Source: a virus. Taken from it: DNA of 64,000 nt. Shown piece after piece: positions 3,506 to 53,983 of this stretch. Location: the IMG/VR virus record IMGVR_UViG_3300034121_001395; one strand, given 5' to 3'. Each line of letters begins with the position of its first letter. Within the stretch, counting starts at the first letter, position 1. Position numbers and translations under genes: made by a program. Below the pieces are notes generated by a model. That model did not search any database and had not been told where the DNA came from. It saw only the letters and a program-made list of their open reading frames with translations.

Positions 3506-4447
3506 ATGCAATACAGTCTTACTATATTTACTTCAATATTTGACAATAAGACTCATCGTCAAATGACATTTGATAGTGTTGATGCATTTGAAAAACTGTT
3601 GTATAAACTGAGCGAGCAACCAGGGTATAAACCTAAAAAGGGAGAATTCCGCGCTGGCTCTCCACTAATAAGTCCTGCTCGCTTTGTTGAAAATGAAACA
3701 CGTAAAAATGTGAATGTAATTTCATGGGGAGGGTGGGCAGCACTTGATGTCGATGACTATAATGGTTCCTTTGAAGACACGATAGAAAGCTTTAAAAACG
3801 TTCGATTCATTTGTTACTCTTCTGCAAGTAGCACACCTGAAAAGCCAAAGTTTCGGGTTATATTTCCACTCACATGCGAGGTGCCAGTAGAAAGTATAAA
3901 ACATTTTTGGTATGCACTAAACACAGAATACAACTCATTGGGAGATCCACAAACCAAGGACCTGTCTCGTATGTATTATGTGCCTGCTCGCTATCCAAAC
4001 AGCCACTACTTTATATTCTCACATCATGACGCTCCACTATTGGATCCATACGCGTTGATGGCTAAACATCCATATGTGATCAAAGAGACCGCAGCAACAT
4101 TCCTTGATAAACTGCCCGAGAGCATACGTTTAAAAGTTATACAACATCGGCGCGAATCGCTTACAAATACTTCATACACTTGGAAATCATATCATGACTG
4201 CCCCTTTGTAAATAGAAATATGGTGGCTGATTATCGCAATATCCAACATTCTGGATGGTACACACAAATGTACAAAATAATGGTTAATATTTCTTCTAAC
4301 GCAATGAAGCGTGGTTATCCTATCACACCAGTTGAAGTTGCAACCCTTTGCAAAGAAATAGATCTTGAGACTGGAGGATGGTACAAATCCCGTCCAATGG
4401 AACTGGAGGCCTCCCGGGCCATAGAATTTGCCTCCCAAACATTGTAA
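3506..4447 (+). CDS. AEP/PrimPol-like primase protein
   Basis: ALDVDD, YSSASS..PKFRVIFPL and DPQTKDLSRMYY motifs typical of phage primase-polymerase domains. Confidence 0.65.
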   Translation: MQYSLTIFTSIFDNKTHRQMTFDSVDAFEKLLYKLSEQPGYKPKKGEFRAGSPLISPARFVENETRKNVNVISWGGWAALDVDDYNGSFEDTIESFKNVRFICYSSASSTPEKPKFRVIFPLTCEVPVESIKHFWYALNTEYNSLGDPQTKDLSRMYYVPARYPNSHYFIFSHHDAPLLDPYALMAKHPYVIKETAATFLDKLPESIRLKVIQHRRESLTNTSYTWKSYHDCPFVNRNMVADYRNIQHSGWYTQMYKIMVNISSNAMKRGYPITPVEVATLCKEIDLETGGWYKSRPMELEASRAIEFASQTL

Positions 4448-4489: not shown

Positions 4490-4590
4490 TTTCTCTATAC
4501 GGGGGCACTGTCCGGGGCCTTTTTTCACTTTTATGAAAAAAGTTGTGTACTTTCTGTGGGTTTTATGCTATAATAACCATGTAAGCAACA
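4490..4590 (+). repeat. Repeated early-promoter cassette, copy 1
   Basis: TTTCTCTATACGGGG..CCTTTTTTCACTTTT..GAAAAAAGTTGTGTACTTTC..TATAATAACCATGTAAGCAACA; recurs at about 16893, 46166 and 52892. Confidence 0.85.
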
Positions 4591-4796: not shown

Positions 4797-5721
4797 TGAA
4801 AAAGATCAAAGCAAAAACTTTTGACTATTCACCCATTGCTCTGAGAGCGCTGACTCGTCATAAGATTGCTCCTCCAACAAAATTCTTTACAGACAGAAAA
4901 AAGGCAAGTTCTAAGCTTGCATGCAGACTCAAATCTCATTGAATATGTACAAAATCAAAACTGAAACACTGCGTGACGTTAAAGAACGTCAAACACTATG
5001 GCTTCCCTGGATGCAAGAAATTTGTGAAGGTCTTAGTTTAGACTCACTAGTCGAGACGACCACCCAAATGTTGCCAATTGGAAACTATCTAGTCTCAATC
5101 AAACCAGCAAATAGAAACACCAAACAATGACACTGCTAACCAAACTATTCGGCAATAAGTCTAAGCGCAAGAATATGAGACCGCTCTATGGTTGGTCGAT
5201 CTTTGCTCTTGATGACAGCGTTCATCTTTCAAGACGCGTCACAGAAGCACAACGTAAACAGATGCAACAACTGCCATGATTTCTACAGTTGAATATATTC
5301 AAAACGGATTTATCTTTGTAAGTTGGGTTGCTGCAGGTTGGCTCGTTGGAGCAGCAGTCACTGCATATCTGATGCGATCATCAAAAAATAAGTAAAAAGC
5401 GATATGTCAACATACGAAAAAAGAGTTCAAGAACTTGAAGATGAAGGTCTTACAACCTCAGATGCGCAAGGGATTGCTGATATGGAATTTGAACAGGAAG
5501 CGGTGTACGAAAACTTTAACCAAATTTTTAGATGACAAATAGTGCTCAATATGAATTAGAAGTGTTGGTGTTATCGGTACCAGACAAATTAGTAGAGTTG
5601 GGACTCATCGACAATGAAGACGAATATTCATTGTTCTATGCGTTGCAGCATCGAGTTAACTCTATACGTTGTAAAAATTCTAAACGTTTAAATTTTTTTA
5701 CTCGGCTAAAAAATAAGTTTT

Positions 5722-16755: not shown

Positions 16756-16892
16756 AAAATACACTCAGCAAACAGGTTTGGGGATAGTGTGGTCATTTGT
16801 ACTACACTATCCCTGTCCCAGGCCTCCCAAGGGCTAAAAATGCCTAAAATATGGTCCCGGGGACGAAAAAAGTGAAAAAAAGTGCATTTTGT

Positions 16893-16960
16893 TGAAAAAA
16901 GTTGTGTACTTTCCGTGGGTTTTATGCTATAATAACCATGTAAGCACAACCAACCACAAT
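16893..16960 (+). repeat. Repeated early-promoter cassette, copy 2
   Basis: TGAAAAAAGTTGTGTACTTTCCGTGGGTTTTATGCTATAATAACCATGTAAGCAC..CAACCACAAT. Confidence 0.85.
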
Positions 16961-22849: not shown

Positions 22850-23449
22850 ATGAAGACTTTGGCGGACTATATACTTCTATTAAAAGGCGCGATGCCGCTT
22901 GATATGTGCGAGGCATTGATTGCGAGATATGATTCAATATCAAAAAATGATCCTTTAAAGGTACATCGTAAAAATAAAATCCTTGATTTTGAAGAGATTA
23001 ACATGCTTGATCATCCTGGATTTGAAGAGTTTAGGGTTCCAATGATGACGTTGATGAGAGCAGTCAATAAACACTATCTTGAAAAAACGTGTAATATTTT
23101 AAAGGATCGTTTACCGTGTTATGAACCTCTACAAGATTTTGAGGCGCCACGAATAAAACGTTATGAGCCTAGAACTGGGCTCTTTGATTGGCACACTGAT
23201 CATTGTGATGTTCCATCAAGTAAACGTGCAGTTGTAATGTTTTGGTATCTTAACGACGTTGCAAAAGGGGGTGAAACGTTATTTGATATTGGCACAGAAA
23301 TTGCAATAAAACCTGAAGCTGGTAATGTGCTCTGTTTTCCACCTTATTATATGTATCCACATAAGGGTGCAACTCCAATCTCTAACCCAAAGTATGTAAT
23401 TTCATCATATGTCTGGCTTCCACAGAAGTATGGAAATTCTTGCGATTAA
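22850..23449 (+). CDS. 2OG-Fe(II) oxygenase
   Basis: WHTD, WYLNDVAKGGET, YPHKG and KYVISS. Confidence 0.88.
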   Translation: MKTLADYILLLKGAMPLDMCEALIARYDSISKNDPLKVHRKNKILDFEEINMLDHPGFEEFRVPMMTLMRAVNKHYLEKTCNILKDRLPCYEPLQDFEAPRIKRYEPRTGLFDWHTDHCDVPSSKRAVVMFWYLNDVAKGGETLFDIGTEIAIKPEAGNVLCFPPYYMYPHKGATPISNPKYVISSYVWLPQKYGNSCD

Positions 23450-48577: not shown

Positions 48578-48673
48578 GCTAGAGTGTCCTGAATTGGTTA
48601 AAGGTCCTTCTTTATAAGGGGGTAGAATCGGTCATCGAGCCGTATGTGGGTTCGAGTCCCACCTCTAGTACCA
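48578..48673 (+). tRNA. tRNA-Ile(TAT) with long variable arm
   Basis: GCTAGAG/CTCTAGT, CCTTC-TTTATAA-GGGGG, about 23-nt variable region, A73, CCA. Confidence 0.78.
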
Positions 48674-50782: not shown

Positions 50783-50862
50783 CGCGGGGCAGTCAGTAGT
50801 GGTGCTGAACTAGTCTCATAAGCTAGGCTTCGGTGTGGGTTCGACTCCCACCCCCGCAACCA
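50783..50862 (+). tRNA. tRNA-Met(CAT), second initiator-like copy
   Basis: CGCGGGG/CCCCGCA (C1:A72), CTAGT-CTCATAA-GCTAG. Confidence 0.85.
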
Positions 50863-51148: not shown

Positions 51149-51247
51149 CAATGTATAGTGTAGTGGTAGCACGCCCCAAGCAAGGGGTTTCTTATCCGAT
51201 AGGATAGGCGACAACGCCGAGGTGATGGTTCGATTCCATCTGCATTG
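51149..51247 (+). ncRNA. tRNA-like RNA with 6-nt anticodon loop and extra hairpins
   Basis: CAATGTA/TGCATTG, D-arm GTG-TAGTGGTAG-CAC, T-arm GATGG-TTCGATT-CCATC. Confidence 0.65.
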
Positions 51248-51257
51248 TTTAATTTTC

Positions 51258-51329: not shown

Positions 51330-52097
51330 ATGAACTACAAAAAGATTTATGATAATCTGATAAAATATAGACAACAAAATATTTTATCAGATGGATATAT
51401 TGAACGACACCACATTGTGCCTCGATCACTTGGTGGATCTGATGAAGAAACAAATATAGTGGCTTTAACAGGTCGTGAACATTATGTTGCTCATTTACTT
51501 CTAGCAAGATATAATAAATGCAGTCAAACTATATATGCACTTTGTATGATGCAAATAAAAAATATTACGAACGAAGGGCGCCCTCTTATTAAATCTGGTA
51601 GAATGTATGAATGGGCTCGTAAAGAATTTGCTAAATATGTAGCAAAAAATAATATGATTACCTCAAAAGGAGAACAAAATAGTCAATTTGGAACTCGTTG
51701 GATATGTAATATAACTTTAAAAGAAAATCGTAAAATTTCTAAAGATAGTTTGATTCCAGACGGATGGATTGCCGGTCGCAATAAATGGAAACATAAATAC
51801 TTAACGCGAACAGCAAAGGGTTCTAAAGAACATAGAAATCGAGTAAGAGACGCACGTATAGGAAAAAAACTAAGTATTGAAACAAAAGAAAAAATATCTA
51901 AAGCAAATAAAAAATCTCGTTTAGGCAATGAATCTTTAACTGGTAGGATTTGGATTAACAATGGAACAATTAACAAAGCAATACTAAAAAATGAATCTAT
52001 ACCAGAAGGATTTATTAAAGGAAAACTTTCGCGTCATAAGTGTTACGGCAGCACATTAGACTTCCACTCTGAAGGCGTGAGTTCGACCCTCACATGA
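51330..52097 (+). CDS. HNH homing endonuclease (Mob-like); C-terminus overlaps tRNA-Gly
   Basis: MNYKKIYDNLI..ERHHIVPRSLGGSDEETNIVALTGREHYVAHLLL; GEQNSQFGTRWI. Confidence 0.88.
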   Translation: MNYKKIYDNLIKYRQQNILSDGYIERHHIVPRSLGGSDEETNIVALTGREHYVAHLLLARYNKCSQTIYALCMMQIKNITNEGRPLIKSGRMYEWARKEFAKYVAKNNMITSKGEQNSQFGTRWICNITLKENRKISKDSLIPDGWIAGRNKWKHKYLTRTAKGSKEHRNRVRDARIGKKLSIETKEKISKANKKSRLGNESLTGRIWINNGTINKAILKNESIPEGFIKGKLSRHKCYGSTLDFHSEGVSSTLT

Positions 52098-52104
52098 CGC
52101 ACCA
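52031..52104 (+). tRNA. tRNA-Gly(TCC), intact replacement copy
   Basis: GCGTCAT/ATGACGC, TTAGA-CTTCCAC-TCTGA, A73, CCA. Confidence 0.85.
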
Positions 52105-52111
52105 ATTTCAA

Positions 52112-52216
52112 TGGGGTGAAGCTTAGCGGCTTCTATTCTCTTTATACCCTCTACGCTTGATGGGTGCACACTAGACAGCGCATGGTTTTAATAATGACAT
52201 GAGAATACCCCCACCA
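52112..52216 (+). ncRNA. Unclassified CCA-ended structured RNA
   Basis: TGGGG/CCCCA+CCA, GAAGC/GCTTC and TATTCTC/GAGAATA. Confidence 0.5.
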
Positions 52217-52217
52217 T

Positions 52218-52400
52218 TTTTTCCCTGCCATTGTAGGCATAGACACTGCAATGAGCGATTTGACAGAGAGCGGGTTAGCAACCCGATGATGACAAACGTA
52301 ATCCGACGCAAATTAAACTAGTCTTGGAGTCGCTACCAAGATGAAATAGTCACTGTGTTTCTTCAAAGCAACATCGTTGCTTCATCGGTAGTGGGGAAAA
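52218..52400 (+). ncRNA. Unclassified multi-stem RNA with likely pseudoknot
   Basis: TTTTCCC/GGGAAAA closing stem; CATTGTAG/CTGCAATG, CGGGTT/AACCCG and TCTTGG/CCAAGA hairpins. Confidence 0.5.
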
Positions 52401-52405
52401 CACTT

Positions 52406-52476
52406 TGCGAGAGGGATCATACGGAGATCGCTAGGCCCATAGTCTAGAGTGGAGGTTAAAGCCCTCCCCCTCGCAA
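52406..52476 (+). tRNA. Degenerate tRNA-like gene, CAT anticodon, no CCA
   Basis: GATC/GATC D-stem, CTAGG-CCCATAG-TCTAG, GGAGG-TTAAAGC-CCTCC. Confidence 0.5.
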
Positions 52477-52580
52477 TTCGTATCATGCGCGAATCCAAAT
52501 ATGTCATGACGCAGCTAGGTGTGGTTCCTAGATAGCCCCAGCCCTGGGTGAGTGTAGCAGCAATCTGTTATGGGCAAATA

Positions 52581-52771
52581 TTTAACGGGTATGTCGGCTT
52601 AGAAGTAGCCATCATATAAGAAGTGGAACTAAACGTGAAGAAGAGGTAATTCGTATGGATACAATTCAATCAAGCCATACACCCTTGCAAAAGGTACTGC
52701 GATACTCGTGAATTGCGTTTCATAGGACGAGCAATCGTAACTCCTTTGGTGTAACAACAACACCCGTTAAA
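52581..52771 (+). ncRNA. Mimic of the 23S rRNA L11-binding domain (H43/H44) with large insertion
   Basis: ATGTCGGCTTAGAAGTAGCCATCAT (H43-like) and GT-GTAACA-AC (H44-like) inside a TTTAACGGGT/ACCCGTTAAA stem. Confidence 0.75.
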
Positions 52772-52891
52772 TTCATTTTCTATCGTGCGTTTTGATCGCC
52801 CGAAGTATTCAGAGAAAACAGACAGGAAAATGAGTGTAGCAGCAATCTGTCATGGGCAAATTTTCACAAAAATAAGTCCTGGAGGTCAGTT

Positions 52892-53003
52892 TTTCTCTAT
52901 ACGGGGCTTAACTTCGGGACCTTTTTTCACTTTTTTGAAAAAAGTTGTGTACTTTCTGTGGGTTTTATGCTATAATAACCATGTAAGCAACACCAACCAC
53001 AAT
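52892..53003 (+). repeat. Repeated early-promoter cassette, copy 4
   Basis: Near-identical to copies 1 and 3. Confidence 0.85.
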
Positions 53004-53216
53004 ATGAAAAACAAATCTTCAATATTTCTCTTATTAGGACGCGTAGACTATGAAGGCGACGACGTATTAGGAGCCTATAGCTCACTTAAAAAAGCAAATT
53101 GCGCACTAGATGCTTATAAGGCTAAGGTTGATGCTGATCGTGTCAACAATCATTATGAAAATACTGCGTATGATGATTATGTTATAAATGAATGTGAGGT
53201 CAATGCTGAAGTCTGA
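53004..53216 (+). CDS. Hypothetical early protein
   Basis: ATG right after the cassette; DYEGDDVLGAYSS. Confidence 0.6.
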   Translation: MKNKSSIFLLLGRVDYEGDDVLGAYSSLKKANCALDAYKAKVDADRVNNHYENTAYDDYVINECEVNAEV

Positions 53217-53469
53217 TCTTTTGAGAAACTCCAATACAATATGAAACAGGACATCGATCAAAAGTTTACTGTCACTTGGAATTCTCCAACGCAAGCAAAG
53301 CGCAAGACAGTTATGTTCCGTAAGCAGAAAGACGCAGAGGAATTCTACGAAGAGAAGAAGGTCGCAAAGAGATCCCCTGCTCTATACATTACTGAAAAGA
53401 TTACCTCTACGCGTCGGCTCAAAGCTTAACACATTAGTTGAGCACTAATAAACTCCACCACATCTTTAT

Positions 53470-53745
53470 ATGACTATCACTGAATCAATTGGCAAGAAAG
53501 TAAGGCATGGCTCTCACGGCTATCAAAATGAGGAGACAATCAAGCAAATCTCCTTTTTAAAAGACTCGGTAGAGATTGAGTTTGAATCGGGTGTCTTTTC
53601 GACCATGTCACCGGGTGAGTTTGGACACTTTATGCGATATGAAGAACTCTCTTATAAAGAGAAGCATCATGAAGGTTCAAGTTATATTTTCAGTTATATT
53701 TTCTTTTGTGACACTGAAAACCAATGGTATTCACTCATCGACTAA
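53470..53745 (+). CDS. Hypothetical protein
   Basis: 91-aa ORF. Confidence 0.5.
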   Translation: MTITESIGKKVRHGSHGYQNEETIKQISFLKDSVEIEFESGVFSTMSPGEFGHFMRYEELSYKEKHHEGSSYIFSYIFFCDTENQWYSLID

Positions 53746-53983
53746 AGCAACATCAACACTAAGACCGCATGAAAACAAAACAATATTCGATTGTATTTCA
53801 CACAGCTGAATGCTATATAGAAGCAATGACGTTAAGCGACATTCACACCTATAACGATGCCGATGCTGCAGAGATTGAGCTTTTCTGGAACAGCAAACAT
53901 AAACGTGACAACGCGGTTCGTCTTCTTAAGCAACATGACATCGTTGTCGACACATATGACGGCGTACCAATATGAAAACACTC

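Follow-up and report, generated by a model that had tools for sequence, protein, structure and literature searches.

The closest known counterparts of the phage RNA described here are the GTPase-associated centre of bacterial 23S rRNA itself and the cis-acting, rRNA-mimicking leaders of ribosomal-protein operons. The centre (E. coli positions 1051-1108) forms a 58-nt fragment that binds uL11 and thiostrepton. Within it, C1072 pairs with C1092 and also bonds with G1099, and G1071 interacts likewise with the G1091-C1100 pair (PMC2952862). The C-terminal domain of uL11 binds the isolated H43/H44 substructure tightly (PMC3592554). Operon leaders such as the L10 leader (RF00557) and the L1-binding leaders share a principle with the reading favoured below, in that an RNA off the ribosome imitates an rRNA site and binds its protein; however, they act in cis within the mRNAs of cellular r-protein operons and resemble rRNA only in part, whereas the phage RNA stands alone and comprises a whole, autonomously folding domain.

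Among phage RNAs, a ToxI-like pseudo-antitoxin RNA acts as a decoy against defence (PMC3475682). Such RNAs, and phage replacement tRNAs, likewise imitate a host or defence RNA and neutralise a protein; the molecule imitated by the present RNA is, in contrast, a ribosomal RNA domain, and its target is a candidate only. GOLLD and ROOL are likewise structured phage ncRNAs with no assigned function, often beside tRNA genes, but they have other folds, no likeness to rRNA and a much larger size, and their Rfam models did not match the element. In T4, rnaC and rnaD (species 1 and 2 RNAs) are likewise stable non-tRNA RNAs on the tRNA strand of a T4-type tRNA cluster. They were rejected as relatives, as the covariance model R1 described below found no match in T4 68.5-74.5 kb (best E=0.33) and no relation in sequence or structure was apparent.

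The locus studied here lies in what we call the window, the whole 64,000-nt stretch of viral DNA that was analysed (IMG/VR record IMGVR_UViG_3300034121_001395). Its source is an uncultured T4-like myovirus, with a B-family DNA polymerase 46% identical to that of Phage C48C1 (best match) and about 44% identical to those of cyanomyoviruses. The element, 191 nt at 52581-52771, is a free-standing phage RNA gene outside any rRNA gene, and its RNA reproduces H43, H44 and the top of H42, with an insertion at about position 1089/1090 (E. coli numbering). As far as we found, no element of this kind, in which a phage encodes a free-standing copy of an rRNA domain, was known before.

Materials and Methods

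The 23S reference was E. coli rrlH from NC_000913 (L001). Family members were collected from IMG/VR by three exact-pattern scans, each of which fixed one hairpin (the H43 loop with T1072, H44 with T-A, or H44 with C-G), and matches were then filtered by requiring the other hairpin and the junction motif. Matches to the H44 16-mer in coding DNA were mostly due to chance and were dropped by requiring an H43 loop upstream. Short records in the phage collection, and a match in Paenibacillus phage Pd_22F, were true 23S rRNA and were excluded from the family. Model R1 is a covariance model built from 24 shorter phage members, with the window left out of the training alignment.

Results

Structure of the element and comparison with 23S rRNA

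The element (52581-52771) carried every part of the family in order, with a U/U/A triple in which position 1072 matches the 1092:1099 pair. The features of the locus were as follows.

52549-52582, + strand: direct repeat, upstream copy, 34 nt; bounds the cassette
52581-52590, + strand: closing stem, 5' strand, TTTAACGGGT; equivalent to the top of H42 (about 1047-1056) and complementary to 52762-52771
52591-52615, + strand: H43-like hairpin, ATGTCGGCTTAGAAGTAGCCATCAT; equivalent to 23S 1057-1081, with T52606 at position 1072
52616-52624, + strand: junction, ATAAGAAGT; equivalent to 1082-1090; the family consensus is TTAAAGAGT, as in Firmicute 23S
52625-52744, + strand: inserted helical domain (Hx) of about 120 nt, which rRNA lacks; basal pairs GGA (52625-52627) with TCC (52742-52744)
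52745-52761, + strand: TTT and the H44-like hairpin GGTGTAACAACAAC; the hairpin is equivalent to 1090-1102, with T52750 at 1092 and A52757 at 1099
52762-52771, + strand: closing stem, 3' strand, ACCCGTTAAA, the complement of TTTAACGGGT
52831-52864, + strand: direct repeat, downstream copy, 94% identical to the upstream copy
52876-52927, + strand: intrinsic terminator; 9-bp outer stem GUCCUGGAG/CUUCGGGAC (52876-52920), then a U run

The order in the window was thus TTTAACGGGT, ATGTCGGCTTAGAAGTAGCCATCAT, ATAAGAAGT, about 120 nt, TTTGGTGTAACAACAAC (52745-52761) and ACCCGTTAAA. The H44-like part reads GGTGTAACAAC..AC (52749-52761), and the H44-like hairpin lies 129 nt downstream of the H43-like one. 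The initial annotation, made from the sequence without database searches, had described a 10-bp closing stem, a 23-of-25 match to 23S 1057-1081, an H44-like hairpin about 120 nt further on and a multi-hairpin insertion at about position 1089. The stem was read directly, as TTTAACGGGT at 52581-52590 and its complement ACCCGTTAAA at 52762-52771; rrlH agreed with both the E. coli sequence given there and the count; about 120 nt (52625-52744) separate the junction from H44; and a domain inserted at about 1089/1090 was present throughout the family.

E. coli rrlH reads GCCAGG-ATGTTGGCTTAGAAGCAGCCATCAT-TTAAAGAAAG-CGTAATAGC-TCACTGG at 1051-1107. Identity of the element to 1057-1081 (ATGTTGGCTTAGAAGCAGCCATCAT) was 23/25, the differences being U1061C and C1072U; the latter corresponds to T52606 in the H43-like hairpin. 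The H44-like hairpin has U for C1092 (52750) and A for G1099 (52757), and the triple of E. coli (proteobacterial) 23S is of the C type. U.(U-A) is the form typical of archaeal and eukaryotic rRNA and not of bacterial rRNA. The subgroup to which the window belongs departs from the family consensus at 1086/1087 and carries an extra A before C1102, and the G1087-C1102 pair is therefore non-standard here. Folding of the 191 nt as a single sequence was unremarkable (z=-1.7), and the evidence for structure comes from covariation and not from stability.

Model R1 matched the window at 52579-52774 (75.8 bits, E=1.6e-20, model positions 1-160), its sole match in the 64 kb. It gave 59.7 bits (E=1e-15) to the true GTPase-associated centre of E. 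coli 23S (1045-1115) and 62.2 bits to a Paenibacillus 23S. Because a model trained without the window recovered the element at E=1.6e-20, the resemblance is far beyond chance. Rfam 15 gave no match to LSU or any other rRNA, whether at gathering thresholds across the window or at E up to 10 across 52100-53980, and returned only tRNAs and noise. The element did not lie inside a full-length 23S rRNA by membership in the LSU_rRNA_bacteria model, its flanks being phage intergenic DNA and tRNAs; a cmscan gave no Rfam match to r-protein leaders, and the neighbourhood contains no r-protein gene. At the default cut-off, neither the 1.9-kb region nor 20 kb of the window had a BLAST match in the phage collection, and a 50-nt query found none in E. 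coli genomes.

The initial annotation had also taken the RNA to be free-standing, with no described family known for it, and had suggested an Infernal search of Rfam as a check. That search matched no LSU or ncRNA family to the element, and both views stood: no rRNA gene surrounds the element (Rfam 15), which has a closing stem of its own, and no family that fits it was found in Rfam 15 or in the literature searched. No description of the family was found in full-text literature open without subscription, and no rRNA-like motif is mentioned in a catalogue of candidate structured RNAs of viruses from 2023.

A covarying phage RNA family

The IMG/VR scans yielded at least 145 distinct members in phage contigs. 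The common architecture is a closing stem, H43, the junction UUAAAGAGU (a Firmicute-type 23S sequence, as in the Paenibacillus 23S used for comparison), an inserted helix, UUUGG(C/U)GUAAYA(G/A)CAC and the other strand of the closing stem. The closing stem has at least 9 pairs, of which eight positions were scored as 82-96% paired in the 145 members, and all four Watson-Crick types occur at most positions. In H43, the pairs 1057:1081, 1058:1080 and 1059:1079 were 100% paired in 119 members through UA, GC, AU and CG alternatives (at 1058:1080, UA 54, GC 34, AU 25 and CG 4), and in the junction 1082:1086 covaried as UA in 61, CG in 26 and AU in 18. Three basal pairs of the inserted helix, which follow an invariant A-U, G.U and U.U, covaried among GC, AU, UA and CG and were 88-98% paired across the 145 members, while the interior of the insert was hypervariable, with lengths of 37-613 nt and 113 sequence clusters among 145 members.

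In a MAFFT alignment of 55 members, 93.3% of cells were paired, compared with 68.4% after shuffling (reached in 0 of 500 shuffles) and 40-49% when the partners were slid; 19 of the 24 pairs had changed on both sides. RNAalifold recovered the same helices with no structure supplied. The match is neither a scrap nor a product of chance, and every helix covaries.

In the tertiary core, 84 members had C/C/G at 1072/1092/1099, 56 had U/U/A and 5 were mixed, and the 1092:1099 pair (CG in 84, UA in 59) tracked position 1072; in the 55-sequence alignment, 1072:1099 was C:G in 35 and U:A in 20, with no exceptions. Since each scan fixed one side only, ascertainment is not the cause of this co-variation; two of the patterns did fix part of 1090-1102, but members found by H43 alone showed the same H44. 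Among relatives with homologous inserts there were at least three separate coordinated switches of the triple rather than a single ancient split, because both types are present in each of three homologous-insert groups; in one of these, L180 is of the U type, and GAP32 and CBB are of the C type. Both types were also present in phages of Proteobacteria, and U.(U-A) is a true isosteric alternative to C.(C-G). It had been argued from the window that its T.(T-A) triple pointed to a selected fold and not to a decaying scrap, and a collection of homologues had been proposed as the check; the family upheld this, with 145 members that keep H43/H44, all helices covarying and the triple switching as a unit between C.(C-G) and U.(U-A).

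Positions G1071, G1091-C1100, U1060 and A1088 were invariant or nearly so, and the purine.A mismatch 1056.1103 was kept. The H44 loop, G-U-A-(A/G)-(C/U)-A, was kept even in members found via H43 alone. The tip of the H43 loop was relaxed: position 1067 was A in 117 members, G in 23 and another base in 5, 1068 was A in 26 and 1070 was G in 17.

The phage RNA and the bacterial 23S centre therefore have the same helices, near-identical loop and junction sequences, and in common the 1072.(1092-1099) triple, the contact of G1071 with G1091-C1100, that of U1060 with A1088, the 1082:1086 pair and the 1056.1103 mismatch. Unlike the 23S centre, the phage RNA is a stand-alone gene with its own closing stem, has a variable helical domain of 37-613 nt at about 1089/1090 that turns the three-way junction into a four-way one, varies at the H43 loop tip (1067-1070) and carries the U.(U-A) triple in many members. 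The covariation counts and the coordinated triple switches support assignment of the putative RNA to the GTPase-associated-centre fold (H43/H44, 1072.(1092-1099), and G1071 with G1091-C1100). Ancient capture of an rRNA segment is its likely origin, judging by sequence.

Distribution among phages

Full-length R1 matches were found in the cultured phages GAP32, pf16, fHe-Yen9-04, UNO-G1W1, Milchi and XaC1. Weaker matches occurred in Aeromonas phage 4_4572 (44 bits), Ralstonia phage RSP15 (41) and Prevotella megaphage Lak-A1 (30), and all three matches, by their reported ends, stopped before any H44-like 3' half. Pectobacterium phage CBB is known here from a BLAST match rather than from R1. In the records of carrier phages, the DNA of the element was unannotated or bore small 'hypothetical protein' calls on the opposite strand; such calls in Pseudomonas phage UNO-G1W1 (L444 1273-1380) and phage Milchi (L447 1224-1355) are probably spurious.

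A scan of one genome per prokaryotic species gave about 14 true members among 120 pattern matches, on contigs of Clostridia, Bacteroidota, Proteobacteria, Chloroflexota and other groups, which are presumably prophages or binned phage contigs. One prokaryotic contig (L424) had three copies in 1.4 kb (3993-4089, 4187-4348 and 5201-5390), two of them clear and one weaker.

A repeat-bounded cassette

The nearest available relative, G001 (173.8 kb, 97% complete), was 97% identical to it on both sides of the element. There, the sequences equivalent to window 52403-52582 and 52831-53004 abut via a single copy of the 34-nt sequence, and an R1 search found no mimic anywhere in G001. The 282-bp unit is a presence/absence polymorphism bounded by the repeat, and either state may be ancestral.

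The 34-nt repeat, TGAGTGTAGCAGCAATCTGTYATGGGCAAATWTT, brackets the mimic and a 60-nt tail, and its copy in G001 lies at about 23266-23299 (L003). Two other loci (L011 and L016) have a similar small hairpin, then ATGGRCAAAT, before the mimic, with no downstream copy; the repeat may represent the 3' terminus of an RNA element lying upstream, or else a signal for processing. The stretch 52380-52580 is non-coding and 97% identical to G001, compared with only 82% for the adjacent 52100-52405. Rfam did not match it and its folding stability was ordinary (z=-0.01); it could be another RNA element.

Genomic surroundings

The element lies inside, and on the same strand as, a cluster of 21 tRNA genes (48.5-56.1 kb, all +), among which small ORFs and a gene for a homing endonuclease are scattered; no ORF of note among those of the window overlaps it. 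The endonuclease gene (51330-52097; phrog_655, E=7e-38) is about 480 nt upstream of the mimic. Odd tRNA calls in the cluster (48578-48673, 51149-51248 and 50783-50862) comprised a 96-nt tRNA-Ile(UAU) and a 100-nt tRNA match made by Rfam only (40.9 bits), which are both long enough for an insert or intron, and a tRNA-Met called by ARAGORN only. After the terminator comes a promoter cassette, TTGAAA-N-TATAAT (52935-52976), one of three in the window. The full cassette of about 100 nt (terminator hairpin, T-run and TTGAAA...TATAAT promoter) was seen at 4533-4574, 16892-16933 and 52935-52976 and in more than 10 places in G001, and marks the boundaries of transcription units in this phage lineage.

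The association with tRNA genes extended to the family. Of the 145 members, 52 had a tRNA no more than 100 nt away and 91 had one within 2 kb, on the same strand in all 91, and four loci carrying the mimic also had a tmRNA. An all-versus-all comparison of ORFs within 3 kb of the 145 members found no conserved protein neighbour, the largest cluster (a TerD domain) occurring at 8 of 145 loci, which points to a host partner. Proteins with vWA-TerF, HNH endonuclease, NADAR, CCA-adding enzyme and DUF2828 domains were each near a few members. Within 3 kb of the mimic, NADAR (which reverses ADP-ribosylation), the CCA-adding enzyme, DUF2828/DUF7788 and a TerD and vWA-TerF pair were each seen at 4-8 of 145 loci; examples from this set are L131 7372-7875, L257 8417-9883, L041 4725-6176 and L291 1062-2728.

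A few mimic-bearing islands encoded suppressor-type tRNAs, with a CUA anticodon (L031, L184 and L188) or a UCA anticodon (L026). uL11 is reported to affect RF1-dependent termination, and it is conceivable that these tRNAs are linked to stop-codon read-through via uL11 and RF1.

Discussion

The findings established that the element is a replica of the uL11-binding domain that closes on itself and is under selection, that it lies on the strand of the tRNA transcript and that no protein gene is dedicated to it. We infer that it is expressed as a discrete RNA, that it binds uL11 and that this binding has a downstream effect. The initial annotation had suggested titration of uL11 or RelA, or a decoy for an rRNA-targeting defence factor; the results neither contradict these candidate roles nor separate them. 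The reading that we favour, with a probability of about 0.5, is that the phage RNA imitates the GTPase-associated centre off the ribosome and that uL11 is its most likely ligand. The gene would encode a stable non-coding RNA, co-transcribed with the tRNA array and ending before the terminator at 52876-52927. This RNA would fold as a self-closed copy of the centre (top of H42, H43 and H44) with its tertiary core kept, and the extra variable helical domain would emerge from the junction at about 1089/1090. Off the ribosome in the infected cell, it would imitate the site and capture uL11, whose C-terminal domain recognises the folded domain, and this capture would alter the steps that depend on uL11, such as RelA activation, factor-dependent GTPase steps and RF1 function.

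The C-terminal domain of uL11 reads the folded shape of its binding domain. A shape-reading ligand fits the family best because the folding core is conserved while the H43 loop tip drifts and either isosteric triple is accepted, and because both triple types occur in phages of Proteobacteria while E. coli 23S has the C type. Several observations count against uL11. The inserted domain exits beside A1088, near the place of uL11 and uL10 on the ribosome, and might get in the way of binding; the subgroup of the window has changes at 1086/1087 and an extra A before C1102; the stoichiometry is poor, given how plentiful ribosomes and uL11 are and that uL11 binds the ribosome cooperatively; and absence of the element from G001 makes it dispensable for that phage type.

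A broader view, which we regard as possible and hold only tentatively, is that many phage lineages carry the RNA as a portable counter-measure that would either trap toxins or defence effectors directed at the GTPase-associated centre, or silence the stringent response by stripping away or occupying uL11 or RelA. The first of these roles, taken by itself, we consider unlikely. It would make the RNA a decoy or trap for an enzyme that attacks the centre in rRNA (an ADP-ribosyltransferase or a nuclease), coming from competitors or acting as an abortive-infection effector, and would protect ribosomes that the phage needs, in the way that phage tRNA arrays make good the tRNAs cut by defence nucleases. 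A precedent for such an attack is the toxin Tre23, which ADP-ribosylates H44 at 1095-1098 and blocks the GTPase activity of EF-G (PMC8661411), and it is the H44 loop that is kept even in members found by H43 alone. The accessory, patchy, repeat-bounded gene, absent from G001, also sits in tRNA islands next to RNA-repair-type genes, with NADAR, the CCA-adding enzyme and DUF2828 each near four members, a pattern typical of counter-defence cargo. However, the NADAR neighbourhood rests on 4 of 145 loci, an enzyme with turnover is poorly held off by a competing substrate unless that substrate binds far more tightly, and we know of no defence system that targets the GTPase-associated centre.

A sponge for a scarce factor that docks at the L11 stalk appears improbable. 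RelA, the translational GTPases and the release factors are far scarcer than ribosomes, and titration of one of them by an RNA that keeps the docking-site fold would be numerically feasible; sequestration of RelA would blunt the stringent response. On the ribosome, these factors also use contacts with the sarcin-ricin loop, the A-site finger and tRNA, none of which the phage RNA has, and A1067, a conserved base of factor contact in rRNA, varies in the family.

We give still less credence to a partner role with a phage protein, the variable domain serving as a handle, or to a selfish cassette, of little benefit to the phage, whose spread is tied to the homing endonucleases found in tRNA islands. 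The hypervariable insert (113 clusters among 145 members), the presence/absence polymorphism bounded by a direct repeat and the homing endonuclease gene 480 nt upstream (51330-52097) are consistent with one or other of these, but no protein gene co-occurs with the RNA (the largest neighbour cluster reaches 8 of 145 loci), and purifying selection on a precise rRNA tertiary core would be hard to explain for a selfish unit. A decaying scrap of captured host rRNA or an assembly chimera, to which the similarity of the core to 23S and the likely ancient capture might point, was refuted by covariation, with compensatory changes in every helix and in the triple across 145 members, a closing stem of its own in each member, no other rRNA sequence in the window and the element present in finished genomes of cultured phages.

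Of these explanations, capture of uL11 by an off-ribosome replica is the one we prefer, and its consequences can be pursued directly, as carriers are in culture with laboratory hosts (pf16, UNO-G1W1, Milchi, GAP32, CBB, fHe-Yen9-04, XaC1 and RSP15). If the counter-measure reading were true, the RNA would be the first decoy of an rRNA domain and would imply an unrecognised class of attacks on the GTPase-associated centre; the family could expose toxins or defence systems aimed at that site. For annotation, the element accounts for unannotated gaps and spurious small CDS calls in phage tRNA islands. The family also amounts to a set of natural mutants of the centre, in which isosteric swaps of the triple recur, and shows that a whole domain can be accommodated at the junction. 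Should the RNA function as its fold implies, phages would be manipulating translation by means of a stand-alone replica of an rRNA domain, for which we found no precedent, and its study could reveal phage control of uL11-dependent steps, such as the stringent response, termination and the activation of factor GTPases.
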